Below are positions 7,176 to 54,990 of a stretch of 64,000 bases of DNA, in pieces (position 1 is the stretch's first letter; every line of letters begins with the position of its first letter). The DNA comes from Elusimicrobiaceae bacterium (lineage in GTDB: Bacteria > Elusimicrobiota > Elusimicrobia > Elusimicrobiales > Elusimicrobiaceae): assembly GCA_045606805.1 (NCBI GenBank), contig JAZUSP010000047.1:5087-69086 (forward strand), read 5' to 3'. The notes beneath the pieces were generated by a model that searched no databases, was not told where the DNA came from, and worked only from the letters and a program-made list of their open reading frames with translations. A program made the translations under genes and the position numbers.

Positions 7176-7455
7176 AAGTTTTGCTCCTGTTTATTTAATT
7201 TGCAATTTACCCACTTATGAAACCCCACGGAAAACGGCTACTATACCGGAGTTTCTTGCAGTAACCCATATACAACAGCCGTAGTTTACCATTGAAAATG
7301 ATAAACATTCGGTACAACTTCGCAGGTTTGCAATTCCGTTGTCGTTGTACCTTATAATTGGCTGTATTTTGGACTGCAAGAATGCCTTTAAAGGCTTCCC
7401 GTTTCTTAAACGGTTCCAAAAACAGATAAAATTGTACCTATAGTATAATAAAAAA
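7176..7455 (-). ncRNA. Conserved structured 5' leader of pilin cassette, copy L1
   Basis: TATACT -10, UCUGUUUUUGGAACCGUUUAAGAAACGG block, stems CUUGCAGU/ACUGCAAG, ACAGCC/GGCUGU, GGUACAAC/GUUGUACC, conserved GAAUGUUU and downstream AGCCGUUUU. Confidence 0.8.
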
Positions 7456-7572
7456 GGTTGGATTTTAGCAACCTTTTTTAGGGGAAAAGTTTTACGTAAT
7501 GAATATTTACGTCCGCCAAGCATCGGGTAGAATGTTCAAAATAGCGCGGTGCAAACGAAAGGGATGGACGTG

Positions 7573-7696
7573 TTTTCAGATTTGAGGCAGATTCGCACCG
7601 TATGTTGCCCCGCAGCGTACGTCTGCAAGACAACGCGTCAGCGTTGCAGGTACGCAAGGTGGGCAAATCGGTGCGAAGGTGCCCGAATGTGAAAAC
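7573..7696. repeat. ~125-bp palindromic element (GTAC-core family), copy 2
   Basis: Near-identical to 1931-2053, with compensatory changes in the apical stem (AACGCGTCAGCGTT vs AATGCGTCAGCATT). Confidence 0.9.
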
Positions 7697-7711
7697 TGTT
7701 AGTTCGTGGTG

Positions 7712-8323
7712 TTATTGTGAAATCGGTACATTAAGTAAGGGCTTATCTTTCCACCCTTTCTTATCAAAATGCCACCACTCCGTGCGCGTATAGCTAAACC
7801 CGGCGGCCGTCATAATTTGTTTAAGCGTCTCGCGCCGGGCCAATATATCGGCGGGCAAGTCATAAAAATCCATGTGGGCTTGCTTGGTGAAAGAGTCAAA
7901 ATCCGTCGGCATTTTGAGGGGGTTGCCGTTCAAATCGCACGGCGTCAAATCTACCGCCATCCCGCGGCTATGGCGCGAGCCGCGCTTAGGCATGGCCACG
8001 TAACTTGGGTTTGGAAATGCTTGCCACAGCTTGCGGTGCTCGTCCTGCGGGCGATAGCAATCCCACAAGCAAAATGTAAACGGCTCTTTGGCTTGCGCCG
8101 CCAGCGCAACGGCTTTTTTCAGGCCGTCCACCACATCTTTATGCAAGTAACATTTGGCAGAAGCATAGATTTTTTTCCCCGTAAAATTGTTGTCCGTGGC
8201 ATAGCGCAAGCGCACAAACACGGGCAAATTTTCCACGGTTTGCACGTCCACAAGCCCGGCATCCTCTAAGGGTCCGGCCGTCGCGGGCCAGGCACATAAC
8301 AACAGCAAAAGTACGCGTTTCAT
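7712..8323 (-). CDS. ddpX: D-Ala-D-Ala dipeptidase (M15D, VanX/DdpX family), with signal peptide
   Basis: RYATDNNFTG, WDCYRP, SRHSRGMAVDLT and EWWHFD motifs; start MKRVLLLLLC at 8323. Confidence 0.9.
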   Translation of the reverse strand: MKRVLLLLLCAWPATAGPLEDAGLVDVQTVENLPVFVRLRYATDNNFTGKKIYASAKCYLHKDVVDGLKKAVALAAQAKEPFTFCLWDCYRPQDEHRKLWQAFPNPSYVAMPKRGSRHSRGMAVDLTPCDLNGNPLKMPTDFDSFTKQAHMDFYDLPADILARRETLKQIMTAAGFSYTRTEWWHFDKKGWKDKPLLNVPISQ

Positions 8324-8345
8324 ACTTTTATTATATAATAAAGGT

Positions 8346-9263
8346 ATGGACGAAAAACACTTCAAAAGCGGTTTTGCCGTACTGGCCGGGCTGCCCAATG
8401 CGGGTAAGTCCACGCTGCTCAATCAAGTGGCGGGCGGGTTACTCAGTGCTGTTACGCACAAGCCCCAAACCACGCGCCAAAACATTTTGGCAATTAGCGA
8501 GGGGGAAAACTACCAAATTGTGTTTGTGGACACCCCCGGATTCTTAACGCCTAAGTATAAGCTGCAGCAAACCATGGCCGATTGTGTGGACCGCGCCGTG
8601 CAGGAAGAAGCCGACGTGGTGCTTTTTTTGGTGGACATTACCGCGGATTACGAAGAAAACGCCAAGCTGGTGGCTAAGCTTAAAAAAGTGTTCTGCCCCA
8701 TTTTCCTCGTCTTGACCAAGTTGGATTTACTCAAAGACCGCGCGGCCATGGACGCGCTGGAAGAACGCGTTAAAAAAGACTTGCCCATTGCACAGGTAAT
8801 TCACGTTTCGGCTACCAAGGGTATTGGCATTGGAAAACTCAAAAACGCGGTGGCGGACGTGTTGCCGCTGAGCCCGGCGTATTTTCCGGCCGGCCAGTGG
8901 ACGGACCGTTGGGAACGCTTTTACGCGGCCGAGTTTATCCGTGAGCAAGTTTTCCTGTTGTACGAGCAGGAAATCCCGTACAGCACGTACGTGGAAGTGG
9001 AAAAATTTACCGAGAATTTGGGCCCCAAAAACTTTATCCGTGCCATCATCCACGTGGAGCGCGAGAGCCAAAAGCCCATCATCATCGGCAAGGACGGTAG
9101 TATGATTAGACAGTTGCGCGAGCGTAGCCAAAAGCGCGTGGAAGAATTTTTGGGCCGCCCGTGCCGCGTGGAACTGGGGGTCGTGGTATCGCCGGATTGG
9201 CGCAACAACAAGGCCAAGTTAGAGCAGTTTGGCTACCTGGACAAAGACCCGCGCGACATGTAA
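8346..9263 (+). CDS. era: GTPase Era
   Basis: GLPNAGKSTLLN, KPQTTR, DTPG motifs and C-terminal KH domain (EIPY, IIIGKDG). Confidence 0.97.
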   Translation: MDEKHFKSGFAVLAGLPNAGKSTLLNQVAGGLLSAVTHKPQTTRQNILAISEGENYQIVFVDTPGFLTPKYKLQQTMADCVDRAVQEEADVVLFLVDITADYEENAKLVAKLKKVFCPIFLVLTKLDLLKDRAAMDALEERVKKDLPIAQVIHVSATKGIGIGKLKNAVADVLPLSPAYFPAGQWTDRWERFYAAEFIREQVFLLYEQEIPYSTYVEVEKFTENLGPKNFIRAIIHVERESQKPIIIGKDGSMIRQLRERSQKRVEEFLGRPCRVELGVVVSPDWRNNKAKLEQFGYLDKDPRDM

Positions 9264-9267
9264 CTTT

Positions 9268-10424
9268 TTATTTTCCCGCCGATAACCGCTGTGCGATTTT
9301 AGTAAGCATAGCGGTTAATTTTTTATACTGTTCCACGCCGTCGGGGTCCACAAACGGGAAACACGCAATGCGCAAGGAATTTTGCGCTACCGTGCGGTAT
9401 TTTTTCAGGCCGTCAGCCAGGTTTTGTTTGCCGGTAGTGCGTAGAATTTGCGCAATTTGTTCGCCGGTAATTTGCGGGTGTGTAATGGCTAGCGTAAACG
9501 TGGTGAACGAGCGGTATTTTTCGTCGGAAATCAGGGGTTTAAAATACGGGGATTGTTGCGCCCAGTTACCCAAATAATCGGCGTGAGCGCGGCACAGTTT
9601 TTCCATAGCACTTATGCCGCCGCGCGCTAGCATCCATTTGGCGGCTTCATTGGCCATCCATATATTGATGGTGCTGGGGGTATTTAGCGTTTGGAATTGG
9701 TCCGCGTACGCAAGCGCGTTACGCAAATCTAAAAAGAAGGGTAAGTTTCGCGCAGGGTGCTTTGCACGCTCTACAGCGCGCGGGCTAAGCACCATGGCAC
9801 ACGTGCCGCCGCCGGCCCCCAAACATTTTTGCAAGCCGAAAATTTGGATATCGTACGCGCCTTTGGGCAAACGCCGCCCGCCCGCACACGACGTAGTATC
9901 CCACGCCACCAGCGTATGGGGTCCGCGGTTTTGCCAAATGTGAAGCAAATACTCGTCGGGTAATTGAACGCCGGTAGCGGTTTCGTTTGGGGTCAGCAAA
10001 ACTAAACTGGCGTTGGCGTCGGGCAAACCTTGCGGCAAAAAGTGTTCGTCCGCCGTTACAAACGAACGTTTGATGTGGGGCACGCGCGCGGCTAAATCAG
10101 CACACCATAAGTGGCTAAACGCGCCGATATCCACGCCGGAAATGGTATCTTTGGCTAGGCTCCACAGTACGGCGTCCATAGCCGGGGTCACGCCGCCGGG
10201 GAAGAACAAAACGGTGTAATCTGGCGGAATTTCCAACAGCGTGCGCAGATTTTCCACGCACTCTTTGTAAAGACCGTCAAAGGTAATGTCGGCCGCGCGG
10301 TGGCTGCGCTCAAAAAAAGTCTCGTACAGGCGCGCGTTGCGCACAGAAGGCAACCCTTGCCCCGGCCCGCACGAAAAACTGGCAGTGGGGAGTTCTTCCT
10401 CGGTAAAAATCAAATCGTTGGTGT

Positions 10425-10428
<4 letters not shown>
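9268..10428 (-). CDS. serC: Class V PLP aminotransferase, probable phosphoserine aminotransferase
   Basis: FSCGPGQ N-terminus, NETATGV, WDTTSCAGG, FGLQKCLG (PLP lysine) and NTPS motif. Confidence 0.78.
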
Positions 10429-13304
<2,876 letters not shown>

Positions 13305-13384
13305 GGAAAACCTCACACGGGGTTTTTGCCCCGCTAACTTAAATATATTATATAATTTATTTAACTTACACCGGGAGTTTGCGT

Positions 13385-14434
13385 GTGAAAAAACCGCTTA
13401 AATACTTATTATATGGGCTGGGGATGGTGTTATCTATCGGCATTTTGGCCGTGATGATTTACCACGCCAAGGACAGCTTTATCAAAATTTGGCAGGGCGT
13501 TAAAACAAAATACCTGTTTTTGTCGTTATTATCGTCGGTACTGATTTACATTGCCATGGGCATGAGCCTCTACGAAATGCTGCGTATCATGGGCCGGCGC
13601 ATCAGCAAAAGTGCCGCTGTGGGCATTGCCTTAGTTTCCACGACGGTAAACTATTTGGTGTCCTCGCTCGGGGCCAGCGGGTTTGCCTTGCGTGCGCATC
13701 TGCTCAACCGCCGCCGCATCCCGTTTGGCATGTGCGTCACGGCCAGCATTGTAATAACCGTACTCTTATATTTTGTACTGGCCATTATCATTTTGCAAGG
13801 GTCTATTTTGATGCTGTTTAACTCGTCCACGACGCCGTGGCAGCTCTTGGAAAATTTCGGTCTGATTGCCGGGATGTGCATCGTATGTGTGCTGATTACG
13901 GCGTTTCTATTTAATGACGAGTGGCGCTCCAAATGGTTGCGCAAAGCCTTCCGTCTGCTTAACAAAGTGTTGTTCCACGGGTTTGGGGCGCTCATTTCCA
14001 AGGGCCGCTATGACGATTTTGCCGCGCAGTTGGACGAAGGCATTGACCTCATCCACCAAAAACGTCACAAATTGACCAAAGCAATTGTGTACGTCTGCGC
14101 CGATTGGTTTTTTACCATTATGGTGCTTTATTTTGCGTTCCGTGCGGTGGGGGTGATGATTTCGCCCGGCGTGTTGGTGGCGGGGTTTGCCGTGGGCATG
14201 GTGACGACGCTCATCCCCATTTTGCCCAGCGGCCTAGGCGCCATGGAGCTTGCCATGACGGCCGTTTTTAACCAAATGGGTATTGATTGGGATGCCGCTT
14301 TAATGGCTACGCTCATCTACCGCGTAGTCTATTACGTTATCCCCGGCATTGTGAGTATTTTTATTTACTGGGGGCTGCAGTTATCTTCCCCGAGTGATGA
14401 GCCCAAACGTAAACGCAAAGGGGCGCACGTATGA
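13385..14434 (+). CDS. Lysylphosphatidylglycerol-synthase TM domain / UPF0104 flippase-like membrane protein
   Basis: Multi-pass membrane protein with [14 protein letters not shown] and LIYRVVYY motifs; GTG start after GGGAG. Confidence 0.75.
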
Positions 14435-15308: not shown

Positions 15309-15316
15309 GAGAGAAT

Positions 15317-16437: not shown

Positions 16438-17133
16438 TTAGTAATTGTATCGTATATTTTCTATAGGAGTGCTTTGTTCGGTTTCAGCTTGGCATATTTT
16501 ATGTTGTAGGGTTGTTGTATCGTTTCCATAGGCATAACAAGCTGTTTGTCCGGCATTTTTGTTGTTGTGATTAAGATTAATGAGGTAGCCTATTTGTCTG
16601 TTTCCGGCGGAATCATTTCGGATACAATAAACAGCTGTTTGTTCTTCTCTAATTTCCAAGATACATAATCCCCACGGGTAATAATGGACGCCGTAAATAT
16701 CATTTAACGTGGAAGACGTGGGAGTGGGAACATCTATGTCTAATTTGCTGATATCCGGGGTGTAGCTGTTGTTGGCTAAGTAATATACTTCCTCGGCATT
16801 GGCTAACGTTTTTACGAGGTTTTTAACGGTAGCAAAGCGGCTTTTGAGTACCGCTTTTTGGTACTGCGGCACCGCCACCGTGGCCAATATACCGATAATA
16901 AGTACCACGACTAACAACTCAATAAGAGTGAAAGCGCCGCTATTATATAAAGACGTCATTCCAAACCGGGGCATTGCTGTTGGCCCCGCCCCGTAGTGTC
17001 TTAATACGGGGTCTTGGAATCTTCCACGCATGTTGTTTATTAACGACAACGGCAAGCGTTGAAGATCCTGAATCGAGTTCAGGATGACTTGATTTTTTTG
17101 CGTTTGTCCCCGCCGGGTGTGTTTGTGTGTCAT
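16438..17133 (-). CDS. Type IV pilin-like protein 2 with repeat-derived leader
   Basis: A|[24 protein letters not shown] after a 67-aa leader. Confidence 0.92.
   Translation of the reverse strand: MTHKHTRRGQTQKNQVILNSIQDLQRLPLSLINNMRGRFQDPVLRHYGAGPTAMPRFGMTSLYNSGAFTLIELLVVVLIIGILATVAVPQYQKAVLKSRFATVKNLVKTLANAEEVYYLANNSYTPDISKLDIDVPTPTSSTLNDIYGVHYYPWGLCILEIREEQTAVYCIRNDSAGNRQIGYLINLNHNNKNAGQTACYAYGNDTTTLQHKICQAETEQSTPIENIRYNY
16955..17088. repeat. GTCATCC-type double-hairpin element with nested CCCCG..CGGGG insert, in the pilin 2 leader peptide
   Basis: GTCATTCCAAAC-[CGGGGCATT..CCCCGTAGTGTCTTAATACGGGGTC]-TTGGAATCTTCCACGC..GAAGATCCTGAATCGAGTTCAGGATGAC. Confidence 0.88.
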
Positions 17134-17410
17134 GTGTGTTCTCCTGTTATTTATTTATTTATCTGTTTAGGAACACACATAAAACGGCTGCTTTACTTGA
17201 GGCCTTGCAACGGAACTCATATAAAACAACCGCGGCATACCGCTTTTAAGGGCGGTAAACACTCGGCATAAAACGACGGGGTTATAAGGCCCGTTATCCT
17301 ATACCTGACACAGTTGTTTTTGGAGTTGCAAGGCACCGCGTGCGCAGTTCCCCGTTTCTTAAACGGTTCCAAAAACAGATAAAATTTACTACGTCTTTAT
17401 TATAACAAAA
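17134..17410 (-). ncRNA. Conserved structured 5' leader of pilin cassette, copy L2
   Basis: TATAAT -10, same 5' block, stems CCUUGCAAC/GUUGCAAGG and AAAACAACUG/CGGUUGUUUU, GAGUGUUU, downstream CAGCCGUUUU. Confidence 0.78.
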
Positions 17411-21233: not shown

Positions 21234-21989
21234 CTAATAGGGCATTGTATAAGCGCGTAGCGTTGAATAATTTGTGTCTGTTTGGAGGGGTGCACCAAAA
21301 AGTTGGGTGCAATAACTACCCGGCGTTTTTTGATAAACAAAACCGTTAGAATTGGTCCTTTCTGCACAGATAATTTTGGGTTCTCTCATATCTACAAAGA
21401 AACCGGCCCCGGCATAAGTACCGGAAATGCGCCCTAATTTTATAAAATGCCCATCCATTTGCAGGGCCCAATCTTGGTTAGAACGTACTACAGTTGACGT
21501 AGCATAGGTATCCCATAAAGTGTTTCCCGTCCAGGCGGTTAGGTCAATATCCAGTTCTTCAAAAGTGGTTGCGTATTTTCCATTAGCTAAGTAATAGGCG
21601 GCCTGGGCTTGAACCATTGATTTTAGCAACGGTAATACTTGGGCGGCTTTGCTCTTTTCGACGGCTTTTTGATATTGCGGCACAGCCACTGCCGCCAAAA
21701 TACCAATGATGAGGACAACGACTAACAGCTCAATAAGCGTGAATGCGGCAAGATGCCCCTTAGCCGGGGCATTGTCAGAGCCCGCCCCGCAGGGTTGTAG
21801 TGCGGGGCTAGCCTGACCTACCCGTTTAATAAGGGTAAAACCGCCGTTGTTAAATAAAGACGTCATTCCAAACCTGATTTGGAATCTTCCACGCGTGCTG
21901 TTAATCCACGACAACGACAAGCGTTGTAGATCCTGAATCAAGTTCAGGATGACTTTATTTTGTACAACTAACTTTTTGTTTTGCATCAT
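21234..21989 (-). CDS. Type IV pilin-like protein 3 with doubly extended leader
   Basis: Two FTLI motifs 32 aa apart; the second continues as [20 protein letters not shown]. Confidence 0.9.
21862..21953. repeat. GTCATCC-type double-hairpin element in the pilin 3 leader peptide
   Basis: GTCATTCCAAACCTGATTTGGAATCTTCCACGC..GTAGATCCTGAATCAAGTTCAGGATGAC. Confidence 0.88.
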
Positions 21990-22270
21990 GTTATTTCTCC
22001 TTGTATTTTTTCAATTTATCCGTCTTGGAAAAACTCATGCAAAAACGGCTCATGCCAGTTAAGCGTTTCCCCACCCTTAACCAACAACAGCCGTAATTTA
22101 CCGTACAGAACGATAAACATTCAGCACAACTTTTATTTGGGATCGGCAAATAAATGTTGTGCCTAATTACGCGCTGTATTTTGGAGGGGAAACGATTGCT
22201 TTTTAAAGCAAAAGTCCGTTTCTTAAACGGTTCCAAAAACAGATGAAATTGTCGTTTTCCTACTCTCTCA
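21990..22270 (-). ncRNA. Conserved structured 5' leader of pilin cassette, copy L3
   Basis: TAGAAT -10, 5' block, stems CGUUUCCCC/GGGGAAACG, ACAGC..GUAAUU/AAUUACGGCUGU, GGCACAAC/GUUGUGCU, GAAUGUUU, AGCCGUUUU. Confidence 0.78.
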
Positions 22271-22568: not shown

Positions 22569-23624
22569 ATGAAAAACAATAAACGGGGTTTTACCCTGAT
22601 TGAACTGTTGGTAGTAGTGCTTATCATTGGTATATTGGCGGCGGTAGCGGTGCCGCAGTATAAAAGAGCGGTAGAAAAAAGCCGCTTTAGTGCGTTAATT
22701 CCGGTAGCTAAAGGGGTGGCAACGGGGAACGAAAGTTATTATTTGGAGTCAAACACGTATGCAAATGATATCAAGTATTTAAGTGTAGATGCCAATGCAC
22801 AAGGAATAGAAATAAGTGTGGTAAATGATGACTCAAACGGGCTTAGTTATGTAAAAGCATATAATGAAACCGAATTACCAAATCATGACTATGTTGTCTT
22901 TCAAGAACACAGTGGAAATTTTGGAGGAGTTACGATGTGTGAAGCGGCGGATGAAGAAGCCGGAAAACTGTGCGAAGCGATGGGAGGGAGTATTTTGGAC
23001 GGAGCCGTAACTAGCGGGTGGATTGCGTATGCTTTAAGCGGCGATACGGCCGGAAGCAGTTTCCCCAGTGCGGGTGGTTTTAATTTGGGTGATTTTGACC
23101 AAGCTGCCCTAAATGAGGTATTGGCGGGGTTACCTACTGGAAGCACTTATTCTTATAACTTTGACATATGTGAAGCAATGGACTCGGCGACTAGTTGCGC
23201 CAAATCTACATTTAAGAAAATGGGATATTGTAGGGCGGGGCGACAATATAGTTGTGCAGGTTCTACCTTTAGCAATGGTGGTACATGTACTACCTTCTCT
23301 AATTTAGACGCAGAATATGCGTGTGCGGGTTCTACCTTTGGAGCTAGCGCAAAATGTCAAGGATATAATGCATATGGTTGTGCAGGAAGTACCTTTAGCG
23401 GATATAATAGTTACTGCCAGGGGGGAGCTGCGTACGGATGTGTGGGCTCTACCTTTAGCGGAGAGAATAGTTACTGCCGGGGAGATGTGGAGGACGGATG
23501 TACAGGTACAACCATTCAATCTGGGGCATATTGTACGGGGCAAGGGTGTGCAAACGCCGCGTATGAAGGAACCGGATGTTGCAAAGGAGATTATTGCGGC
23601 AGTGCGCCGAAATGTGCCTCTTAA
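22569..23624 (+). CDS. Type IV pilin-like protein 4 with Cys/Gly-rich repeat C-terminus
   Basis: MKNNKRG|FTLIELL short leader; repeated CxGSTF..YC units in the last ~140 aa. Confidence 0.9.
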   Translation: MKNNKRGFTLIELLVVVLIIGILAAVAVPQYKRAVEKSRFSALIPVAKGVATGNESYYLESNTYANDIKYLSVDANAQGIEISVVNDDSNGLSYVKAYNETELPNHDYVVFQEHSGNFGGVTMCEAADEEAGKLCEAMGGSILDGAVTSGWIAYALSGDTAGSSFPSAGGFNLGDFDQAALNEVLAGLPTGSTYSYNFDICEAMDSATSCAKSTFKKMGYCRAGRQYSCAGSTFSNGGTCTTFSNLDAEYACAGSTFGASAKCQGYNAYGCAGSTFSGYNSYCQGGAAYGCVGSTFSGENSYCRGDVEDGCTGTTIQSGAYCTGQGCANAAYEGTGCCKGDYCGSAPKCAS

Positions 23625-23649
23625 TTTGTATCAAAAAATCTGATTAAAC

Positions 23650-23683
23650 AAAGAGCCCCGGCAATATAGCGGGGCTCTTTTTT
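23650..23683. terminator. Bidirectional terminator between pilin 4 and hydF
   Basis: AAAGAGCCCCG..CGGGGCTCTTTTTT. Confidence 0.8.
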
Positions 23684-24858
23684 CATCTTCCTTTTTTTCT
23701 AAAAATCTCCGTCACGCGCTCAAAAATGCCATTGCACCACGCAATCGTGAGGCCGTAGTTGCTTACGGGGACGCCGGCCTCTTTTAACACCGTTAGGCGG
23801 CGCAAAATTTGCGTGCGCGTTACCATGCATCCGCCGCACTGGATAGCCAATTTAAAGGGACTTAAGTTTTCAGGCAGCGGGTCCAAATTATTGACGGTCG
23901 TAAAAAAGAGTTGTTTGCCGGTAAATTCTTGCAGCCAGCGCGGGATTTTCACGCGGCCGATGTCGTCGCATTTATTTACGGTATGCGTGCAGGACTCCAG
24001 CACCAAAATGTGGTCGCCGTCTTGCAGTTTATCAATGGCGGGTGTGCCTTTTAAGTAGGCGTCAAAATCGCCTTTAAGGCGCGAAAATAAAATGCTAAAG
24101 CTCGTCAGCGGGATATGCGCGGGCACGACGGAGCTAACATATTTAAACACTTGCGAATCGGTCACCACCAGCTTAGGCGTGTGGTTGGCCATGTAACCCC
24201 GCAGTTCGGTATCCTTGACGCACACGGCCGTGGCACCGATATCCAGCAAATTGCGAATCGTCTGCACTTGCGGTAAAATAAGCCGCCCTTGCGGGGCCGA
24301 ACTGTCCACGGGAATAACTAAAACAATCTCATCTCCGGCGCGCACGTAATCGTCCAAAATCACGTCGGGCGCGTAGGAACTTTTGGGCAGGTGCTCACGG
24401 ATGGTACGCAACAATAAATCCACGTTCGGTTTTTTGCACGTAAACGCAACGACGTCCGCGCCTTTAATTTCCACATTAGTGGTAGGCAAATCGGTCTTGT
24501 TCTGCACGAAGAAAAACGGCACTTTGCGTGCTTTGCACGTTTCCATTAACGTTTGGTCGTACGCGTCAAAATTTCCGGCAAATACGAGGACCGCCAAATC
24601 CACTTGGTCCAGCGCGTCATTGGTGCGCGCGACGCGTTGCTGCCCCAGGTTGCTGGGGTCGTCCACGCCGGCGGTGTCAATGAGTTCCACCGGCCCGATA
24701 CCGACGAGTTCAATGACTTTTTTAACCGGGTCCGTAGTGGTGCCGGGTTCGTCCGCCACAACGGAAACCTGCTGGCCTGTTAAGGCGTTGACGAGGGAGC
24801 TTTTCCCCACGTTCATTTTGCCAAAAAATCCAATCCGGGGTTTATTGAGTTGTACCAT
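23683..24858 (-). CDS. hydF: [FeFe]-hydrogenase maturation GTPase HydF
   Basis: GKMNVGKSS, GTTTDPV, DTAG, PQGRLILPQVQT, ESCTH..DDIGRVKIP and CGGCM motifs. Confidence 0.88.
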   Translation of the reverse strand: MVQLNKPRIGFFGKMNVGKSSLVNALTGQQVSVVADEPGTTTDPVKKVIELVGIGPVELIDTAGVDDPSNLGQQRVARTNDALDQVDLAVLVFAGNFDAYDQTLMETCKARKVPFFFVQNKTDLPTTNVEIKGADVVAFTCKKPNVDLLLRTIREHLPKSSYAPDVILDDYVRAGDEIVLVIPVDSSAPQGRLILPQVQTIRNLLDIGATAVCVKDTELRGYMANHTPKLVVTDSQVFKYVSSVVPAHIPLTSFSILFSRLKGDFDAYLKGTPAIDKLQDGDHILVLESCTHTVNKCDDIGRVKIPRWLQEFTGKQLFFTTVNNLDPLPENLSPFKLAIQCGGCMVTRTQILRRLTVLKEAGVPVSNYGLTIAWCNGIFERVTEIFRKKGR

Positions 24859-28432: not shown

Positions 28433-29137
28433 CTAAACCATCCGGTAGAGAAACTGTGAAAATAATTTTTGACAATAATCACCCGGTTGCTTAGAAAATA
28501 GAATTTTACTATTATTAAACCGTTCCATACACATCAATTGTTTTGCGGGATAGGAAGGTGTGGTGCTATTAAGTAAATATACAAAACCCGCTCCGGCATA
28601 AGGTCCGGAGATGCGCCCTATGGCAAGACCCTTTCCAACGGCTTGGTCATAAAATTCTAAACTCCAGTCTTTATTGGATATAGCGCCTGCGGTGTTTAGC
28701 CAACTTTCATGTTTATTCCAAGACATATTTACATCCAAATCTGCAAAAGAATTTGCGTATGTTCCATTTGCCAAATAGTAGGCTTCCTGTGCGGCTGCTA
28801 TGGACCGAATGATTGCAAATGCTTGGGTAGCTTTGCTTTTTTCTACTGCTTTTTGGTATTGTGGAACGGCCACGGCCGCCAATATACCAATGATAAGAAC
28901 AACGACTAGTAGTTCAATGAGAGTAAAGGCCGTGTTGGTATATAAATTTGTCATTCCAAACCGGGGTATTACCGTTGGCCCCGCCCCGTAGTGTCTTAAT
29001 ACGGGGTCTTGGAATCTTCCACGCAGGTCGTTTCGTAACGAAAACAGCAAGCGTTGAAGATCCTGAGTCAAGCTCAGGATGACTTTATTGTTTACAGTCG
29101 GTTGCGTGAAACCCCACCGGGTGTATAGCTGATTCAT
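28433..29137 (-). CDS. Type IV pilin-like protein 5 with repeat-derived leader
   Basis: A|[24 protein letters not shown] after a 70-aa leader. Confidence 0.9.
   Translation of the reverse strand: MNQLYTRWGFTQPTVNNKVILSLTQDLQRLLFSLRNDLRGRFQDPVLRHYGAGPTVIPRFGMTNLYTNTAFTLIELLVVVLIIGILAAVAVPQYQKAVEKSKATQAFAIIRSIAAAQEAYYLANGTYANSFADLDVNMSWNKHESWLNTAGAISNKDWSLEFYDQAVGKGLAIGRISGPYAGAGFVYLLNSTTPSYPAKQLMCMERFNNSKILFSKQPGDYCQKLFSQFLYRMV
28950..29083. repeat. GTCATCC-type double-hairpin element with nested insert, in the pilin 5 leader peptide
   Basis: Same layout as 16955-17088, including CCCCGTAGTGTCTTAATACGGGG. Confidence 0.88.
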
Positions 29138-29390
29138 GTTTTCTCCTTTCTGTTTGGGAAAGAAACGGCTCTTTTGCCGGGCCAGCTATACACAACCCAC
29201 CAAAACAGCCGTGGCCCACCGTCAAAACGGCAAGCACTCGGCACAACCCCAACGGGCTCTAGATTTCCCGTCAAAGTTGTGCCTTAAAACGACTGTTCTT
29301 GGGTGTATAACTGTATCTATCCCATTCACAGTTTAAATTGTATTTACTGCTCTTTCATTCTACATAATTTTTGCCTAAATTAGTAAAATA
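29138..29390 (-). ncRNA. Structured 5' leader of pilin cassette, copy L5 (lacks the 5' GGAACC block)
   Basis: TAGAAT -10; stems UAUACA/UGUAUA, AACAGUCGU/ACGGCUGUU, GGCACAAC/GUUGUGCC, GAGUGCUU, AGCCGUUU. Confidence 0.72.
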
Positions 29391-34864: not shown

Positions 34865-35150
34865 ATGCTTTTTCTCCTAACTATAATTTCAATTTACCTG
34901 CTTTGGAAAAACGCATACAAAAACGGCTATGATGCCTGAGTACTCAGCAAAGAACCCAATACAAAACAGCCGTAGTTTTCCGTCGAAACGAAAAACATTC
35001 GGCACAAGAAAACGGGTTTCGAAGGTCCGTTCCCTTGTGCCTTAAATGGCTGCTCTTGGCTTGCTGAGTGCTTTTGTTGGCAAAAGCTCTGCGTTTCCCA
35101 AACGCTTCCAAAAACAGGATAAATTGTACCTACATTATAACATAAAAAAA
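34865..35150 (-). ncRNA. Conserved structured 5' leader of pilin cassette, copy L6
   Basis: TATAAT -10; stems ACUCAGCAA/UUGCUGAGU, CAGCC/GGCUG, GGCACAAG/CUUGUGCC, GAAUGUUU, UAGCCGUUUU. Confidence 0.8.
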
Positions 35151-35252
35151 GGATTATTCCCGAACTTGTTTCGGGATCTTCCACGCCTGTTGTTGGTTGT
35201 TGCTATGTGCAAACGGCAAGCGTCGAAGATCCTGAGTCAAGCTCAGGATGAC
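35151..35252. repeat. Intergenic GTCATCC-type double-hairpin element
   Basis: TTCCCGAACTTGTTTCGGGATCTTCCACGC..CAAGCGTCGAAGATCCTGAGTCAAGCTCAGGATGAC. Confidence 0.85.
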
Positions 35253-35340
35253 AAATTAAAGAAATGGCTCACTTACGTTGCAATAAACTAGTTAAAATTT
35301 GCGTTATAAATTGTAACTTAATTCTTGGTACAATATACTT

Positions 35341-40174: not shown

Positions 40175-40771
40175 CTAATTGGCAAAGGCGAGCGTTTGGC
40201 ATAATTTTTTACCATAATCTGTACGCCCGTCACAAACGATTTTATTGGGTGCTGTGGAATGATGCGCAAAATAATATATTATAAGTAAATCTGGATTGGA
40301 TGCAGGATAAGAAAGTGTTACCATCCAAGCCTTGGGATCTGCCTGTCTTCCTGAGATGTTATCAATCTCGCTAGAAGGACATTCGATGATGGACGCATCC
40401 TCTGTACTCATTTTGCAATTTCCCGGAATATCAAAGTCTAACTTCGAGATGTTGGATGCATATCCTCCGTTTGCCAAATAATATACTTCTTGTGCTTTGC
40501 GAACGTTGTCAACTATGGGTAGCAAAGTGCTTACACGGCTTTTATCTACAGTTAACTTGTATTGCGGCACGGCCACTGCCGCTAAAATGCCGATAATAAG
40601 CACAACGACTAACAACCCAGGGAGCGTCAAACCTCGGGCCACACACTTCGCCATCCCGCAGGCCTGTAGCGCGGGATATAAGTGTGGGCCCGCCCCTATA
40701 CCCCGCACAGTTACACTGCGGGGTGACGAGGGGCAGAAATTGATTACTTCGATAGATTTTTCTTTTTTCAT
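40175..40771 (-). CDS. Type IV pilin-like protein 7 with degenerate methylation motif
   Basis: G|[24 protein letters not shown] instead of FTLIELL; 47-aa repeat-derived leader. Confidence 0.82.
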   Translation of the reverse strand: MKKEKSIEVINFCPSSPRSVTVRGIGAGPHLYPALQACGMAKCVARGLTLPGLLVVVLIIGILAAVAVPQYKLTVDKSRVSTLLPIVDNVRKAQEVYYLANGGYASNISKLDFDIPGNCKMSTEDASIIECPSSEIDNISGRQADPKAWMVTLSYPASNPDLLIIYYFAHHSTAPNKIVCDGRTDYGKKLCQTLAFAN

Positions 40772-41066
40772 ACATGTTCTCCTAAGTTAATTTGCAATTT
40801 AACCTGCTTGGAACACGTATAAGAACGGCCGACACACTTGAGCTACTCGACTAACCCAAATATAACAGCCGTAGTTTACTGATATTACACAAGGTAATAC
40901 CAGCAAACATTCAGCACATTGCTTTCAAGGGATCAGCAAGAAAACAATGTGCCTTAAACGACTGTTCTTGGAGTCGAGTAAGCTAATCTTTATAATTAGC
41001 GTTCCGTATTCCACATACGGTTCCAAAAACAGAGTAGAAATTGTACCTATAGTATAATAAAAAAAT
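40772..41066 (-). ncRNA. Conserved structured 5' leader of pilin cassette, copy L7
   Basis: TATACT -10; stems UACUCGACU/AGUCGAGUA, AACAGUCGU/ACGGCUGUU, GGCACAUU/AAUGUGCU, GAAUGUUU, GGCCGUU. Confidence 0.8.
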
Positions 41067-45590: not shown

Positions 45591-46070
45591 TTATAAAGGG
45601 ACCCAACAAGTACGTGCATTATTACAGCTTGTGTTTAGTAACGATAAACATAGCTTTTTCTTATATGTATTGCCTCCATACCAACATATTACGTGATCTT
45701 GGTCATAATATTTTTCTAAGGTGGGAAGTTGGCCTTTTATATCTTCAATTTTTGTACTGTTATGGATTCCGCCTTCACGGTATAACTTATATTGCACGTC
45801 ACTATAAATTACCTGAGTTGCACTTGTATTAGTAGTTCCGGCAGGTAATTCTACATCTAACTTACTAAAATCGTCGGCATGATCTCCGTTTGCCAAATAA
45901 TAGACTTGTTGGGCAGTATCAATGGCTTTAATAACGGGTAGTACCCGCGATAGGCGTGCTTTATCTACAGCTATCTTATATTGCGGCAGGGCCACCGCGG
46001 CCAAAATGCCGATGATTAAAACAACTACTAACAACTCAATGAGGGTAAACCCCCGTTTTTTCCATTCCAT
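45591..46070 (-). CDS. Type IV pilin-like protein 8 (short leader)
   Basis: MEWKKRG|[24 protein letters not shown]; two C-terminal Cys pairs. Confidence 0.93.
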   Translation of the reverse strand: MEWKKRGFTLIELLVVVLIIGILAAVALPQYKIAVDKARLSRVLPVIKAIDTAQQVYYLANGDHADDFSKLDVELPAGTTNTSATQVIYSDVQYKLYREGGIHNSTKIEDIKGQLPTLEKYYDQDHVICWYGGNTYKKKLCLSLLNTSCNNARTCWVPL

Positions 46071-46356
46071 AAACATGCTCCTAATTTTTTAATTTCAATT
46101 TTCTTCTGTTTATGAAACGTAATAAAAACGACTGGACATAAACCAGGTCTCTACACAGACACCCATTCACACCAGTCGTGGCCTTTTGTCATAGACAAAA
46201 AACACTCAGCACTAAACAACAGGCTCATGACTTCCTGTCATCTAGTGCTTAAAAACGACTGTTCTTGACTGTGTAGAGAGTTCCTAACGGAACTGTCCCG
46301 TATTCCACATACGGTTCAAAAACAGATTAAATTGTACCTACAGTATAATAAAAAAG
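46071..46356 (-). ncRNA. Conserved structured 5' leader of pilin cassette, copy L8
   Basis: TATACT -10; stems CUCUACACAG/CUGUGUAGAG, CAGUCGU/ACGACUG, AGCACUA/UAGUGCU, GAGUGUUU, downstream CAGUCGUUUU. Confidence 0.8.
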
Positions 46357-46396
46357 CACGCATTTTTCAATGCGTGCTTAAAGAGAATGCGGCGTT

Positions 46397-47530: not shown

Positions 47531-47582
47531 ATAAAAATCCCCCGGCATATACCGGGGGATTTTCACGTCAAAACAAGGTTTC

Positions 47583-47912: not shown

Positions 47913-47982
47913 ACAACCTCCTTTAAGTTAAACTGCTACCTTTAGCATACAATAAAATACAAACTTTTTGCAAGACCAAAAA

Positions 47983-49770: not shown

Positions 49771-49928
49771 ACGTATATTATAGCTTTTTGGACTGCACAA
49801 AAGAAAAACCCCTTATGCCCTTTGTAGGTCAAGCATTGCCTGACAAGGCCCTGTAAGGGCTTCTATGCAAAAAGATACAAAAACCCCCAGCTTAGCCGGG
49901 GGTTTTAGAGAATGATAAAAATGACTTA

Positions 49929-51716: not shown

Positions 51717-51830
51717 TCTTATCATCCTCCAAGATACATTATAGCATAACTGGAAAAAAAGGGAAGCGAAAAATAACTATAAAAAACGCCCCAACAGGGG
51801 CGTAAATTTAGAAACTGCCGGTTGCGTAGG

Positions 51831-52001
51831 TTATAACGAAATAGCGCTGACCGGACAGGTGCCGGCACAAGAGCCACACTCAATGCATTTGGCGGCGTCA
51901 ATGTTTCTTTTGCCATTCACTTCGCTAATGGCACCTACCGGGCAGGAAGATTCACAAGCACCACAGTTGATGCAAACTTCGGGGTTTACTTTATAAGCCA
52001 T
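51831..52001 (-). CDS. 2[4Fe-4S] ferredoxin (56 aa; below the ORF-track length cutoff)
   Basis: Hand translation MAYKVNPEVCINCGACESSCPVGAI..CIECGSCAGTCPVSAISL shows two CxxCxxCxxxCP motifs; AGGAG RBS. Confidence 0.96.
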   Translation of the reverse strand: MAYKVNPEVCINCGACESSCPVGAISEVNGKRNIDAAKCIECGSCAGTCPVSAISL

Positions 52002-52115
52002 AATTTTCTCCTATATTTAGATTTCCTACTTATATTATACTAAAAAAAGCGAGTTTGCAAATTCTCAGGCGGTACTCCCCCCTTGTATGAGGAATACTCA
52101 ATGTGATACAATATA

Positions 52116-52135
52116 AAGTGAGGAAAACCTAACTT
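52116..52135 (+). promoter_or_regulatory. Palindromic operator (DtxR/IdeR-like) between the -10 box and the feoAB start
   Basis: AAGTGAGG-AAAA-CCTAACTT downstream of TGATACAAT. Confidence 0.5.
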
Positions 52136-52137
52136 TT

Positions 52138-54081
52138 ATGGAATCACAAACACTTCGCTCACTTTATGAGATTAAAGCCGGTAACACGGCTCAAATTACC
52201 GATATTCAAACCTCGGCCAAAATGGCCCAAAAATTAGCCGCCATGGGCATTGCCCGCGGCCAGTTTATCAAACGTAAAAAAGGCTCTTCCCCTGTGGTGG
52301 TGGAAGTATCCGGCACCGAGGTTGCCATCGGGCGTGAAACTGCCAAAAAGATTTTGGTTACCGCTAAAAAAAATACATTTTTGTTGGCGGGTAACCCTAA
52401 CGTGGGGAAAAGTTTAATTTTCTCGCGCCTTACGGGCATTGGAATTATTTCGTCCAACTTCCCGGGCACAACGGTGGGGCTTAATTACGGCACTACGCAA
52501 TTTAAAGGCGAAACGTACGATATTATTGATATTCCCGGCCTCTACCGCCTAGAAGAAGAATGGCTCATAGAAGGCAAAAAGCGCAATTTATTTAAAGAGC
52601 TGACGTATGATTTTATCGTGTGTGTGGCGGATGCGTCGCACTTGGAGCGCAATTTGTTTTTTGTGCTGGAAATTTTGCAACTGCAAAAGCCGCTTATTTT
52701 GATGCTCAATAAATTTGACGAGGCGCAGCGCAAAGGCATCACAATTGACGTCAAAAAGCTTTCCAAACTCTTGGGCATCCCCGTGATTGCCACCGTAGCC
52801 ACGACGGGTGAGGGCCTTAAAGAATTGGAACGCGAGGCTATGAAGCTGATTAATGACCCTGTGCAAACACCGTCCATTGCCATCCCCCCCACCGCCGAAG
52901 AAAAATGGCAAACCATTGGGCGGATTATTCATGAGGTGCAACAAGTCAAGCACAAACACCCGTCGTTTTGGGAACACTTACAGGGGTGGGCCACGGCGCC
53001 GGTGACCGGGCTGCCGATAGCGTTACTCACGCTGATTGTGTCGTTTTTCCTCGTGCGGTTTGTGGGAGAGAGTTTGATTGATTTGCTAGACCCGCTGTAC
53101 GAAAATTATTATTTTCCATTTTTGGAAAAACTGTTGGCCCCCATTAAAGATAATATGTTGGGGCTACTTTTGCTCGGCGACGGCGGCGATAATTATTTTG
53201 GCGTGCTGACCGACGGGCTACATATTGCCTTAGTGGACGTGATGCCTTACGTGTTTGCGTTTTATGCGTTACTCGGCTTTTTGGGCGAGCTGGGGTATCT
53301 GCCGCGCTTGGCGGTGCTGTTGGACGGCATTTTGCATAAAATCGGTTTGCACGGGTATGGGTCTTTGCCTATTATGCTTGGCTTTGGGTGCAAAGTGCCC
53401 GCCGTGATGGGCGTGCGCGTGCTGGAAACGCGGCGCGAGCGCGTGATTGCGCTGGCGCTTATTTTGGTGCTGGCACCGTGCATTTCGCAAACGGCCATGA
53501 TTATTTCTATTTTATCGCCGTACGGCGTGAAATATATGCTCATGGTATTTGGGGCACTCGTTATAAACGGGATTATTATCGGCACCTTATTAAACCGCTT
53601 GATGAAAGGCGAAACACCCGAGCTGTTTATGGAAATTCCGTCGTGGCAGATCCCGCAACTCCGCCCCTTGGCGCGCAAAATTTGGATCCGCATGAAAGAA
53701 TATTTTGCCGACGCGCTGCCGCTTATTTTAGCCGGGATTGTGTTTGTGGACATCATGCAACTGGCCGGTATTACGGGGTGGCTCACGAAAATTTTACGTG
53801 CGCCGATGGAGTGGGCCTTAGGTTTGCCCGCTGACGTTACCCCGCTGTTGCTCCTCGGGTTTTTGCGCAAAGATGTATCTATTGCTTTGTTAGAGCCGTT
53901 TAATTTAACCCCGCAAGCACTGGTGGTGGCGTGTGTGTTTATGAGTATGTACATGCCGTGCATCGCCACGTTTTTTGTGATGCTGCGCGAGAGCGGCTGG
54001 AAAGATACGTTGCGTGTGGTGGCGCTGACGCTGGTGTTTTCCACGGCGACGGCTATGCTACTGCGGGTGGTGCTGGGGTAA
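52138..54081 (+). CDS. feoB: FeoA-FeoB fusion ferrous iron transporter
   Basis: N-terminal FeoA-like SH3 domain (KLAAMGI..IAIGRETAKKI), GNPNVGKS, NFPGTTV, DIPG, NKFD and gate motif GFGCKVPA. Confidence 0.93.
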   Translation: MESQTLRSLYEIKAGNTAQITDIQTSAKMAQKLAAMGIARGQFIKRKKGSSPVVVEVSGTEVAIGRETAKKILVTAKKNTFLLAGNPNVGKSLIFSRLTGIGIISSNFPGTTVGLNYGTTQFKGETYDIIDIPGLYRLEEEWLIEGKKRNLFKELTYDFIVCVADASHLERNLFFVLEILQLQKPLILMLNKFDEAQRKGITIDVKKLSKLLGIPVIATVATTGEGLKELEREAMKLINDPVQTPSIAIPPTAEEKWQTIGRIIHEVQQVKHKHPSFWEHLQGWATAPVTGLPIALLTLIVSFFLVRFVGESLIDLLDPLYENYYFPFLEKLLAPIKDNMLGLLLLGDGGDNYFGVLTDGLHIALVDVMPYVFAFYALLGFLGELGYLPRLAVLLDGILHKIGLHGYGSLPIMLGFGCKVPAVMGVRVLETRRERVIALALILVLAPCISQTAMIISILSPYGVKYMLMVFGALVINGIIIGTLLNRLMKGETPELFMEIPSWQIPQLRPLARKIWIRMKEYFADALPLILAGIVFVDIMQLAGITGWLTKILRAPMEWALGLPADVTPLLLLGFLRKDVSIALLEPFNLTPQALVVACVFMSMYMPCIATFFVMLRESGWKDTLRVVALTLVFSTATAMLLRVVLG

Positions 54082-54091
54082 AAATAAACTT

Positions 54092-54709
54092 TTATTGTTC
54101 GCTATAACTAGAGGGCATATCGTAGTATGTCCAACCGTTTGGATTCTCTTTTGGATTTCCATCACTTAATGTGGCGCAGACTTTATTTTCTAAGTATTTT
54201 GTTGTTATTGCTTGGCATAGGTAGCGATTTGTTAAAGGATAAAAACTTAAGCGAAGAGATGAATTTAGCGTATAACTTATTTTTTTAAAATCTTCTTCAA
54301 ATATGTATTTATCTTTATTCGGGATATCAATATCAAGTCCTTCCCAAGAATATATATATTCTCCATTGGCTAGGTAATAGGATTGTTGTGCTTTGCGCCA
54401 AGCGTCCAAACCGACTAGCCCTTCCATGGCGCGGGATTTTAGAACTGCCACTTGATATTGCGGTACGGCCACGGCGGTTAAAATACCAATAATAAGCACG
54501 ACGACTAAAAGCTCGATGAGGGTAAAGCCCTTTCTTCCTCCCTTGCGGAGGAAGTGGTCCGCAGGACCGATGGAGGGGCTCATTAAGGAGAATGCCTTAT
54601 AGGCCCCCCTTTTTGTCGCTACCGCGACCCCCGACAAAAGCCCTCGGGGGCAGGCTCTTTCCCCGCAAGGGGGACAAGAAACGACATTTACATTTTTGTT
54701 GTTTTTCAT
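54092..54709 (-). CDS. Type IV pilin-like protein 9 with repeat-derived leader
   Basis: G|[24 protein letters not shown] after a 61-aa leader. Confidence 0.92.
   Translation of the reverse strand: MKNNKNVNVVSCPPCGERACPRGLLSGVAVATKRGAYKAFSLMSPSIGPADHFLRKGGRKGFTLIELLVVVLIIGILTAVAVPQYQVAVLKSRAMEGLVGLDAWRKAQQSYYLANGEYIYSWEGLDIDIPNKDKYIFEEDFKKISYTLNSSLRLSFYPLTNRYLCQAITTKYLENKVCATLSDGNPKENPNGWTYYDMPSSYSEQ
54534..54680. repeat. CCCC(T/G)CAAGGGG-type palindromic element in the pilin 9 leader peptide
   Basis: TTCCTCCCTTGCGGAGGAAG, GGTCCGCAGGACC and CCCCGCAAGGGG hairpins; related to 33311-33359. Confidence 0.72.
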
Positions 54710-54990
54710 AAATCTTTCTCCTTATTTTTATTTCTTCAATTTGTCTGTTTATGAAACCCAACAAAAACGGCTATTAAGCTCAAGCCTACATACTGACCCA
54801 AAAATAACAGCCGTGGTTTTTTGCGTGTGCAAAAAACACTCGGCACAAAACGAACGGGTAATTAGTCCGTTCATCTTGTACCTAAAAACGACTATTTTTG
54901 GCGTATGTATGGCCGGGATTGCTCCCGGCGATCCGTTTCTTAAACGGTTCCAAAAACAGGATAAAATTGTACCTATAGTATAATAAAAAA
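54710..54990 (-). ncRNA. Conserved structured 5' leader of pilin cassette, copy L9
   Basis: TATACT -10; 5' block; stems UACAUAC/GUAUGUA, AAUAGUCGU/ACGGCUGUU, GGUACAA/UUGUGCC, GAGUGUUU, UAGCCGUUUU. Confidence 0.8.

Follow-up and report, generated by a model that had tools for sequence, protein, structure and literature searches.

What controls the type IV pilin genes that lie scattered over a 64,000-nt stretch of an Elusimicrobiaceae genome (assembly GCA_045606805.1, contig JAZUSP010000047.1, positions 5,087 to 69,086; the whole stretch is called the window here)? Gut Elusimicrobiaceae carry dozens of such genes dispersed in small genomes, and we know of no work on how this repertoire is controlled. 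An earlier note on this DNA had proposed that eight of the pilin genes are preceded by copies of a structured leader RNA. Our analysis strongly supports these leaders as a real family, specific to Elusimicrobiaceae and apparently undescribed as far as our sources reach. We consider it likely that the leader acts as a transcription-attenuation switch of the riboswitch type, transcribed together with the pilin gene.

We built a covariance model (CM) of the 164-nt core of the leader from 18 family members and analysed the helices P0, Pa and Pb outside the model. The CM matched the window at exactly eight places, with scores of 79.7-142.7 bits and E-values of 2e-17 to 1e-32, and the next-best match scored 15.5 bits. 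All eight leaders lie on the minus strand, each 5' of a type IV pilin open reading frame (ORF); they are ~260-270 nt long and align at a mean column identity of 63%. The elements are ordered from 5' to 3' as promoter box(es), segment S1, the hairpins Pa and Pb, the 5' strand of helix P1, segment S2, hairpin P3, the nucleotides GA-R-U, hairpin P4, the nucleotides Y-A, segment S3, the 3' strand of P1, segment S4, a run of 5-7 U, segment S5, an A/U-rich spacer, the ribosome-binding site (RBS) and the ATG. Both the CM and this anatomy agree with the eight places given in the earlier note, each copy ending at the ATG of an ORF with a prepilin motif; the order of elements that it described is right, and every P1 and P3 pair that it quoted is present. 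The copies are as follows:

7176-7447, minus strand: leader L1, spanning the TATACT box up to the last base ahead of the ATG at 7175; core 7226-7387, 106.9 bits; P1 UUCUUGCAG/CUGCAAGAA; P3 region 7303-7360, loop palindrome UUGCAA
17134-17404, minus strand: leader L2; core 17176-17338, 142.7 bits; P1 GCCUUGCAAC/GUUGCAAGGC; P3 region 17257-17311, palindrome UUAUAA
21990-22275, minus strand: leader L3; core 22037-22199, 79.7 bits; P1 CGUUUCCCC/GGGGAAACG; P3 region 22115-22172, loop with GAUC
29138-29362, minus strand: leader L4, shortened; core 29157-29317, 100.9 bits; P3 region 29232-29290, palindrome UCUAGA
34865-35139, minus strand: leader L5; core 34915-35074, 120.9 bits; P1 ACUCAGCAAG/UUUGCUGAGU; P3 region 34993-35046, palindrome UUCGAA
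40772-41056, minus strand: leader L6, with a long P4; core 40817-40985, 100.1 bits; P3 region 40905-40959, loop with GAUC
46077-46347, minus strand: leader L7; core 46120-46283, 113.7 bits; P3 region 46200-46255, palindrome UCAUGA
54710-54982, minus strand: leader L8, the exemplar; core 54759-54916, 135.5 bits; P3 region 54834-54888, palindrome UAAUUA

We then wrote a degenerate three-block DNA pattern from the window copies, which recovered seven of the eight and matched none of 100 shuffles, and used it on a collection of species-representative genomes. The pattern matched more than 111 loci (numbered from L001), nearly all in metagenome-assembled genomes (MAGs) assigned to Elusimicrobiaceae, Elusimicrobiales or simply 'Elusimicrobiota', whose hosts include rumen, human, horse, bird and termite guts. 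The CM confirmed 128 full-length copies in the window and loci L001-L099 and 16 further ones in L100-L111, a total of at least 144; at least 136 of them lie outside the window in gut MAGs of Elusimicrobiaceae or Elusimicrobiales, and a single MAG carries at least 22. Four pattern matches outside Elusimicrobia (L020, L031, L087 and L097) were rejected by the CM as chance matches, as was the single match on a viral contig (L112).

In the whole window, Rfam 15, whose families include c-di-GMP-I/II, c-di-AMP, 2'-3'-cGAMP, T-box, ykkC and raiA, gave no match at gathering score, and at E<=1 it matched no leader, the sole match being to an unrelated rimP leader; at E<=10 over the L5 region it returned noise only. 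In the literature, including the full text of some large Breaker/Weinberg motif-discovery papers, we found no motif associated with pilins or with Elusimicrobia. Taken with the strong covariation described below, the absence of an Rfam match supports the earlier proposal of an undescribed cis-regulatory leader RNA. The sub-threshold rimP match (gammaproteobacterial rimP leader, 23633-23710 on the minus strand, 30.4 bits against a gathering score of 47, E = 0.63) overlaps the start of a hydF-like ORF (23683-24858, minus strand) and is almost certainly due to chance.

We used L8 to describe the leader segment by segment:

54982-54977 and 54971-54966, minus strand: -10-like boxes TATACT and TACAAT, candidate promoter boxes
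54950-54959, minus strand: S1, CUGUUUUUGG; complement of S2 (a putative anti-antiterminator role) and of S5 (helix P0)
54933-54947, minus strand: hairpin Pa, CCGUUUAAGAAACGG; elsewhere in the family CCGUAU-GNRGA-AUACGG
54912-54929, minus strand: variable hairpin Pb, GCCGGGAGCAAUCCCGGC; in the family the loop is mostly GNRA
54903-54909, minus strand: P1 5' strand, UACAUAC; hypervariable between copies
54889-54901, minus strand: S2, the P2 5' strand, CCAAAAAUAGUCG
54842-54882, minus strand: hairpin P3, GGUACAAG...UUUGUGCC, with the 9-nt apical loop ACUAAUUAC containing UAAUUA
54838-54841, minus strand: J3/4, GAGU; G 54839 pairs with C 54815 and U 54838 is the invariant bulge
54816-54837, minus strand: hairpin P4, GUUUUUUGC-ACAC-GCAAAAAAC
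54794-54814, minus strand: S3, the switching strand, ACGGCUGUUAUUUUUGGGUCA; its partner is S2 (P2) or S4 (terminator)
54787-54793, minus strand: P1 3' strand, GUAUGUA; within the apical loop of the terminator hairpin
54763-54785, minus strand: S4, the terminator 3' strand, GCUUGAGCUUAAUAGCCG, then the U-run UUUUU (54767-54763)
54745-54759, minus strand: S5, the P0 3' strand, GGGUUUCAUAAACAG
54718-54723, minus strand: RBS, AAGGAG; the ATG is at 54709-54707

The family consensus is CUGUUUUUGG for S1, CCAARAACAGYCG for S2 (also given as CCAAAAACAG), CGGCUGUU..UUGGG for S3 (also given as ACGGCUGUU..UUGGG), CUCAA..AACAGCCG for S4 and, in about two thirds of the copies, GUUUCAUAAACAG for S5. The most conserved part in sequence is S1 together with Pa (AUCUGUUUUUGGAACCGUAUGNRGAAUACGG), which varies little between species. 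Pa itself is highly conserved and carries a loop of GNRGA type (GAAGA, GUGGA, GCAGA, GUAGA or GCGGA) or the variant UUUAAGAAA; the stem sequence of Pb is free and its loops are mostly GNRA. Loops of the GNRA type usually make tertiary contacts in large RNAs. The conserved nucleotides UUUnA, GA-R-U and Y-A mark a three-way junction of P2, P3 and P4, giving a multi-helix domain with covarying stems.

Over 41 modelled pairs in the 128 members of L001-L099 and the window, 96.2% of the cells are paired, against 73.2% when partners are shuffled and 34-45% when they are slid by 1-3 columns. Two-sided changes occur in 33 of the 41 pairs, with 1232 compensatory cells where 337 are expected, and none of 500 shuffles reached the observed value. 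The covariation is strong both on the CM alignment and on a MAFFT alignment that was blind to structure, bearing out the claim that had been made from the eight copies. P1 shows all four Watson-Crick pair types at each of ten positions and is so diverse that 116 leaders hold 109 distinct 8-mers. When alignment is left aside, the 12 nt before the CCAA anchor form on average 9.3 contiguous pairs with the 3' region of their own leader and 5.5 with those of others, and the P1 duplex reaches -14.1 kcal/mol with its own partner compared with -3.6 kcal/mol with the partners from other leaders. P3 combines a conserved base (GGCAC/GUGCC) with a covarying distal part, and P4 a conserved base (GUUU/AAAC) with a variable top. 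The junction holds one more pair, between the R of GARUG and the Y next to P4 on its 3' side (G:C in 59 members, A:U in 56, G:U in 11 and A:C in 2), and this pair spans an invariant bulged U (alignment columns 107, 108 and 157; in L8, 54839, 54838 and 54815). The stretch GA(A/G)UGYUU, which had been described as unpaired, is thus only partly so and is mostly paired: its GYUU forms the base of P4 and its R is paired. On the sense strand, G.U and U.G cells number 526 and A.C and C.A cells 63; it is therefore the sense RNA that carries the structure, as opposed to the antisense strand or duplex DNA.

The leader also holds a second, competing set of pairings. S3, the 3' half of P2, is equally complementary to S4, and the U-run begins immediately after S4. 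Together, S3 and S4 make a hairpin of ~50 nt with a predicted energy of -22.4 +/- 3.5 kcal/mol; the U-run after GCCG has 4-9 nt, and the RBS lies ~41 nt downstream. The S3:S4 duplex is worth -23.7 kcal/mol with its own partner and -19.1 kcal/mol with those of other leaders. When MAFFT aligns 102 hairpins without regard to structure, pairing in the terminator stem reaches 90.7%, compared with 82.7% in shuffles and 33-59% in slid controls, with 114 compensatory cells against 44 in the shuffles. Mutual information singles out two S3-S4 column pairs even when the alignment is the one fitted to the antiterminated (ON) fold, and L7 provides one compensatory change within the window (G->A in S3, ACGACUGG; C->U in S4, CCAGUCGU). 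The terminator hairpin takes up the P1 3' strand in its apical loop, so that P1 plus P2 and the terminator are mutually exclusive. Upstream, S1 is the perfect complement of S2 (mean duplex -12.7 kcal/mol): the eight leaders with an S1 ending in GA all have UC at the start of S2, and wherever S1 carries an A at position 3, a U faces it in S2. A further partner for S1 is S5, close before the RBS (helix P0); the pairing is strong in 62 of 94 leaders, and 19 have a weak one or none. Family-wide, S4 mimics S2 and S1 mimics S3.

The predicted folds are bistable. With S2, S3 forms duplexes of -11.9 to -14.1 kcal/mol on average and with S4 of -23.3 to -23.7 kcal/mol, and the minimum free energy (MFE) structures of the core split 89 vs 27 between its two pairings. 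For transcripts ending at the U-run, the MFE structure is S1:S2 plus the terminator in 72 of 94 leaders (a 72 vs 20 split); once they are extended to the RBS, 43 of 94 adopt P0 with P1/P2 and 36 keep the terminator fold. L8 illustrates both states, with S1:S2 plus the terminator when it is cut at the U-run (-82.7 kcal/mol, z -8.06) and the P0-P1-P2 fold when it is extended (-94.6 kcal/mol, z -8.08).

The earlier note described neither the terminator hairpin with its U-run, nor the sharing of S3, nor the S1 that can sequester S2. These three features make an attenuation mechanism concrete, with S1:S2 as the putative anti-antiterminator, P1-P2 as the antiterminator and S3:S4 with the U-run as the terminator. 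In the OFF state, S1 would pair with S2 and leave S3 free; S3 would then form with S4 a hairpin that, with the U-run, would be an intrinsic terminator, and RNA polymerase would stop before the pilin gene. In the ON state, S2 and S3 would form P2, locked by P1, with P3 and P4 radiating from the three-way junction; S5 would take up S1 as P0, the terminator would not form and the gene would be transcribed. That polymerase does terminate here, and that an effector chooses the fold, we infer from this arrangement, through which the leader probably switches pilin and other surface genes on and off. A 375-nt metatranscriptome contig (run X25) from a rumen MAG locus (L078, 7405-7781) covers the leader and ends 9 nt past the U-run, and the same run has no contig specific to the body of the L078 pilin gene; this agrees with premature termination, but at a depth of 4.6 the leader contig is shallow and the evidence weak. 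For the window itself, no RNA run contained the sequence, and DNA runs contained at most 19% of its words.

Control by a leader peptide, as in trp- or his-type leaders, was rejected: we found no conserved short ORF and no 3-nt periodicity in the length of P4. ORFs starting at the RUG of J3/4 range from 4 to more than 99 codons, and an ATG ORF of any kind lies between S1 and S2 in only 36 of 94 leaders.

Several 3' variants of the leader were also observed. In most copies, P0 and the Shine-Dalgarno sequence are separated by a conserved A/U-rich block, AAAUUGAAA or sometimes AAAUUGCAAAUU (for instance at 54731-54744, 34885-34900 and 46095-46110), which could be a translational enhancer or an S1-binding site. 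Leaders that have no S5 and P0 often carry a GC-rich palindrome such as CCGGGCCCGG just after the U-run (L005, L008 at 4665-4814, L032, L037 and L078 at 7395-7412), which may be an alternative 3' module. A subgroup found before non-pilin genes (L038 and L042; L012 and L028) has a second S1-like block after the terminator, CCUGUUUUUGAUUC or CCCGAUUUUGCUUC, which hints at a further layer of alternative pairing.

A number of observations weigh against the attenuation model. The apical loop of the terminator, which holds the P1 3' strand, is large (~12-14 nt); large-loop terminators can be inefficient, and a standard terminator scan that allows loops of 3-8 nt only does not call it. The U-run reaches at least 5 nt in 78 of 94 leaders, a figure biased upward because the search pattern demanded RYCGUUU. 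Two of the eight window copies have weak U-tracts, L4 (UUUCUUUC) and L6 (UUCUUAUA). L4 is also without canonical S1, Pa and Pb and has a single ACUGU...ACAGU hairpin instead; the earlier note had assigned the loss of the UCUGUUUUUGGAAC block to L5, wrongly, as the copy that has lost it, and the two small hairpins with it, is the fourth (29138-29390). An L4 ortholog in locus L025, 85.6% identical, retains S1, and L4 and L6 may be constitutive or decaying variants. For P2 and S1, partner-specific covariation is nearly absent because the strands are so conserved: the P2 duplex has -14.06 kcal/mol with its own partner and -13.85 with others, and the mean rank of S1:S2 is 0.44. Energies of chimeric duplexes are uninformative for P2, S1:S2 and S1:S5 since these strands are near-invariant, and their signal comes from position-wise tables only; that for S1:S2 rests on about eight leaders, perhaps three or four independent events. 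The L078 RNA contig reaches upstream of the presumed promoter and could include DNA. Finally, sensors of universal metabolites are not usually confined to one bacterial family, as this leader is, and a crude six-frame motif scan of the window and L001-L111 (850,475 bases) found no ORF with a GGDEF (R/K-x-GG[DE]EF) or EAL/DDFGTG motif, which in ~850 kb is a weak argument against cyclic di-GMP (c-di-GMP) as the signal; c-di-GMP signalling may be scarce in these genomes.

If the leader is an attenuator, what would set it? We rank a small ligand ahead of a dedicated RNA-binding protein, and the latter ahead of RNA self-association. A small molecule or second messenger that binds the P2/P3/P4 junction and stabilises the ON fold is in our view the most likely effector: the domain has the complexity of an aptamer, unpaired nucleotides at the junction are conserved, and loops of GNRA type are present.

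A protein effector is a possibility that we take seriously without favouring it. A lineage-specific antiterminator or terminator factor would bind S1-Pa or the three-way junction and so choose between S1:S2 and S2:S3. The near-invariance of S1 and Pa across species would suit such a binding site, and the Pa loops GAAGA, GUGGA, GCAGA, GUAGA and GCGGA fit the GNRNA pentaloop type, the type that phage N proteins bind in boxB. Restriction to one bacterial family is what a dedicated partner would lead one to expect, and a copy number that reaches at least 22 in one MAG recalls PyrR, LicT and T-box-like regulons. However, no candidate protein is linked to the loci, where the leaders adjoin unrelated housekeeping genes, and the GNRA-type loops of Pa and Pb together with the conserved junction would equally fit intramolecular docking as in large riboswitches.

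Self-association of the RNA is doubtful as the effector, but it would account for a peculiar property of P3 (alignment columns 54-90). Its apical loop is self-complementary in 115 of 128 leaders, with a palindrome of at least 6 nt in 81 and of 4 nt in 34 (GAUC, GUAC, AGCU and others), and none in 13. Eleven hexamers occur (UAAUUA, UUAUAA, UUCGAA, UCAUGA, UUGCAA, UCUAGA, CUAUAG, CUCGAG, GUGCAC, UAGCUA and ACGCGU), typically in a 9-nt loop of 2 nt, the 6-nt palindrome and 1 nt. A 6-nt palindrome is found in the distal P3 region of 89 of the 128, where shuffles give 23.7 on average and 36 at most. The palindromes differ between paralogs, one MAG having 11 different ones (of at least 4 nt) among 22 leaders, and their axis is offset from that of the stem, so that they are not simply an extension of it. 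An intramolecular partner was rejected, as no consistent second copy of the hexamer was found within the same leader. Self-complementarity that is kept while the sequence changes suggests kissing-loop homodimerisation: the P3 loop would kiss a leader RNA of the same class, for example a terminated leader that has accumulated, and provide class-specific feedback or choice. Yet P3 is present in both the ON and the OFF fold, giving no obvious link between kissing and switching; most of the palindromes consist of A and U only, making for weak duplexes; and the loops could serve RNA localisation or packing and not regulatory input. A bolder version, on which we would place a little less trust still, is a new class of attenuator with paralog-specific RNA self-recognition, in which the hypervariable P1 and the P3 kissing loop form an 'address' and terminated leaders of the same class bias termination. 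If true, this would amount to RNA-level dosage feedback or a mutually exclusive choice among dozens of pilin genes; the earlier idea that the leader 'selects' among pilins is speculation.

It is unlikely that the leader is just a constitutive structured 5' untranslated region, in which a single P0-P1-P2-P3-P4 fold protects the 5' end or tunes translation and S3:S4 has no regulatory role. With P0 formed, about two thirds of the leaders would have a buried 5' end, the ON fold is the MFE structure of many full-length leaders, and pilins are typically very highly expressed, all of which would suit this explanation. But the terminator stem has compensatory changes of its own and a conserved U-run, which would not be kept if only the ON fold mattered, and the mimicry of S2 by S4 and of S3 by S1 extends over the whole family. 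An element acting as DNA (a mobile promoter cassette, an attC-like recombination site or an operator palindrome) might be suspected from the many dispersed copies before unrelated genes and from the long inverted repeat of P3, but is highly improbable given the 8:1 ratio of G.U to A.C on the sense strand, an orientation always with the gene between the -10 box and the RBS, the lack of bounding target-site duplications or terminal repeats, and loop palindromes that vary too freely to fit a single DNA-binding protein.

For the attenuation switch, the next question is which genes it would serve. The ORFs that follow the eight leaders are:

6519-7175, minus strand: pilin ORF after L1; N_methyl motif at residues 57-78
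16438-17133, minus strand: pilin ORF after L2
21234-21989, minus strand: pilin ORF after L3
28433-29137, minus strand: pilin ORF after L4
34388-34864, minus strand: pilin ORF after L5, with the canonical short prepilin leader MKKENQG|FTLIELL
40175-40771, minus strand: pilin ORF after L6; degenerate N_methyl motif, 16.2 bits, below the cut-off
45591-46076, minus strand: pilin ORF after L7
54092-54709, minus strand: pilin ORF after L8

Seven of these eight reach the cut-off of the Pfam N_methyl model and one falls just under it. In six, the prepilin motif begins only 47-82 codons into the ORF because repeat elements lie in frame after the ATG. These are MITE-like repeats of 100-170 nt without stops, placed between the ATG that follows the leader and G|FTLIELL (minus strand, 16930-17133, 21744-21989, 28928-29137, 7002-7175, 40631-40771 and 54527-54709), and they yield 'prepilin leader peptides' of 47-82 residues; a further copy is intergenic (~35150-35260). 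One type of repeat reads GTCATCCTGAnCTnGAnTCAGGATC...TTTGGAATGAC, at times with a nested GC-rich insert, and in the genes after L3 and L4 a truncated GFT(LI) duplicate flanks the insert. Such insertions in frame may be tolerated because prepilin peptidase removes everything before G|F.

Over the family, a pilin-type N-terminus is found within 900 nt downstream of 97 of 111 evaluable leaders defined by the pattern (87%). The expectation that the leader always precedes pilins therefore holds in the window, for all eight copies, but not family-wide, where 14 of 111 precede genes of other types. A Pfam scan of ten of these 14 cases returned a polysaccharide pyruvyl transferase, a GT2 glycosyltransferase, a sulfatase-family membrane enzyme, an outer-membrane beta-barrel protein, a DUF805 membrane protein, a zinc-ribbon membrane protein, secreted proteins of unknown family and, in one case, a PLD-SNF2 helicase. 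The common theme is the cell envelope, and the regulon is wider than pilins (~13% of copies). The leader would accordingly be a regulon leader of Elusimicrobiaceae for pilins, in ~87% of copies, and for other envelope genes. Nor are all pilin-like genes preceded by it: a 351-aa pilin-like ORF with a canonical N_methyl motif at residues 2-27 (22569-23624, plus strand), divergent from L3, has no leader.

In every case a -10-like box precedes the leader and the RBS/ATG follows it, and its orientation is that of the gene. A promoter scan called TTGAAA-17-TATACT at L7 and TTGAAT-17-TATACT at L6. Where a single -10 box had been described, 75 of 94 leaders have a second -10-like box, TAYAAT, 5-6 nt 5' of the S1 block, which makes the start of transcription ambiguous. 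The pilin genes are dispersed among housekeeping genes that occupy both strands (nusA, infB, era, uvrA, dxs, hydF, mutY, a fadL-like gene, a tolC/hlyD/macB pump, feoB and others). The housekeeping stretches of the window are 75-87% identical in nucleotide sequence to, and syntenic with, loci of Elusimicrobiaceae gut MAGs, which places the source in this family, though not within the species-representative set itself.

The leader family would place most of the dispersed pilin genes, and other envelope genes, under one shared element of control whose mechanism is testable, and the cultivable Elusimicrobium minutum offers a way to test the predictions. For RNA biology, it is a large candidate of T-box-like size, absent from Rfam and with very strong covariation, in which a programmable palindromic loop is joined to an aptamer-like three-way junction and a five-segment terminator switch. 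Should there be a ligand, the leaders would be a new riboswitch class and would show which signal controls the surface architecture of a poorly studied phylum; should the palindromic loops dimerise, they would offer one of few bacterial examples of mRNA leaders that self-associate by a sequence address.

The general kind of element, an attenuator or riboswitch, is already familiar from other systems; what is new is the fold, the five-segment logic, the copy number and the palindromic 'address' loop. In the genes concerned, the leaders are like c-di-GMP riboswitches, of which a class II representative controls the type IV pilus cluster of Clostridioides difficile (PMC11477304). The leaders share with c-di-GMP-I/GEMM-I (RF01051) and c-di-GMP-II (RF01786) a structured 5' leader before pilin or surface genes and, on the model proposed here, a terminator-based platform and a regulon under one signal. 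They differ in that neither CM matches them, even at E<=1, in a copy number that is far higher (at least 22 per genome), and in architecture, a five-segment switch with a three-way junction as opposed to the GEMM hairpin pair of class I and the pseudoknot of class II.

T-box leaders (RF00230) are alike in being 200-300 nt long, in having many copies per genome, in a strand shared between terminator and antiterminator and in a gene-specific part. Rfam finds no T-box match in our leaders, which precede pilin and envelope genes and not aminoacyl-tRNA synthetase or amino-acid genes, and their gene-specific part is a paired helix, P1, plus a palindromic loop, where the T-box has a specifier codon. 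The succession S1:S2, S2:S3 and S3:S4 plus U-run is that of the 1:2, 2:3 and 3:4 pairings in the trp, his and pyrBI attenuators; here, in contrast, there is no conserved leader peptide, and the antiterminator is a large, covarying, aptamer-like multi-helix domain with GNRA-type loops. The small hairpin of the lambda nut site, boxB, has a GNRNA-type pentaloop that can be GAAGA. Pa resembles it in its GNRNA-type pentaloop (GAAGA in both), its position near the 5' end and the fact that termination is at stake; the resemblance is one of loop type only, as the leaders have no boxA, N-like protein or phage context. Palindromic kissing loops are known from the HIV-1 dimerisation initiation site (DIS) and from the oskar and bicoid mRNAs. 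The HIV-1 DIS has the same 9-nt layout of 2+6+1, and its variants likewise change sequence and keep self-complementarity; in the leaders, the setting is bacterial, the dimers are hypothetical, and many loop classes share one genome.

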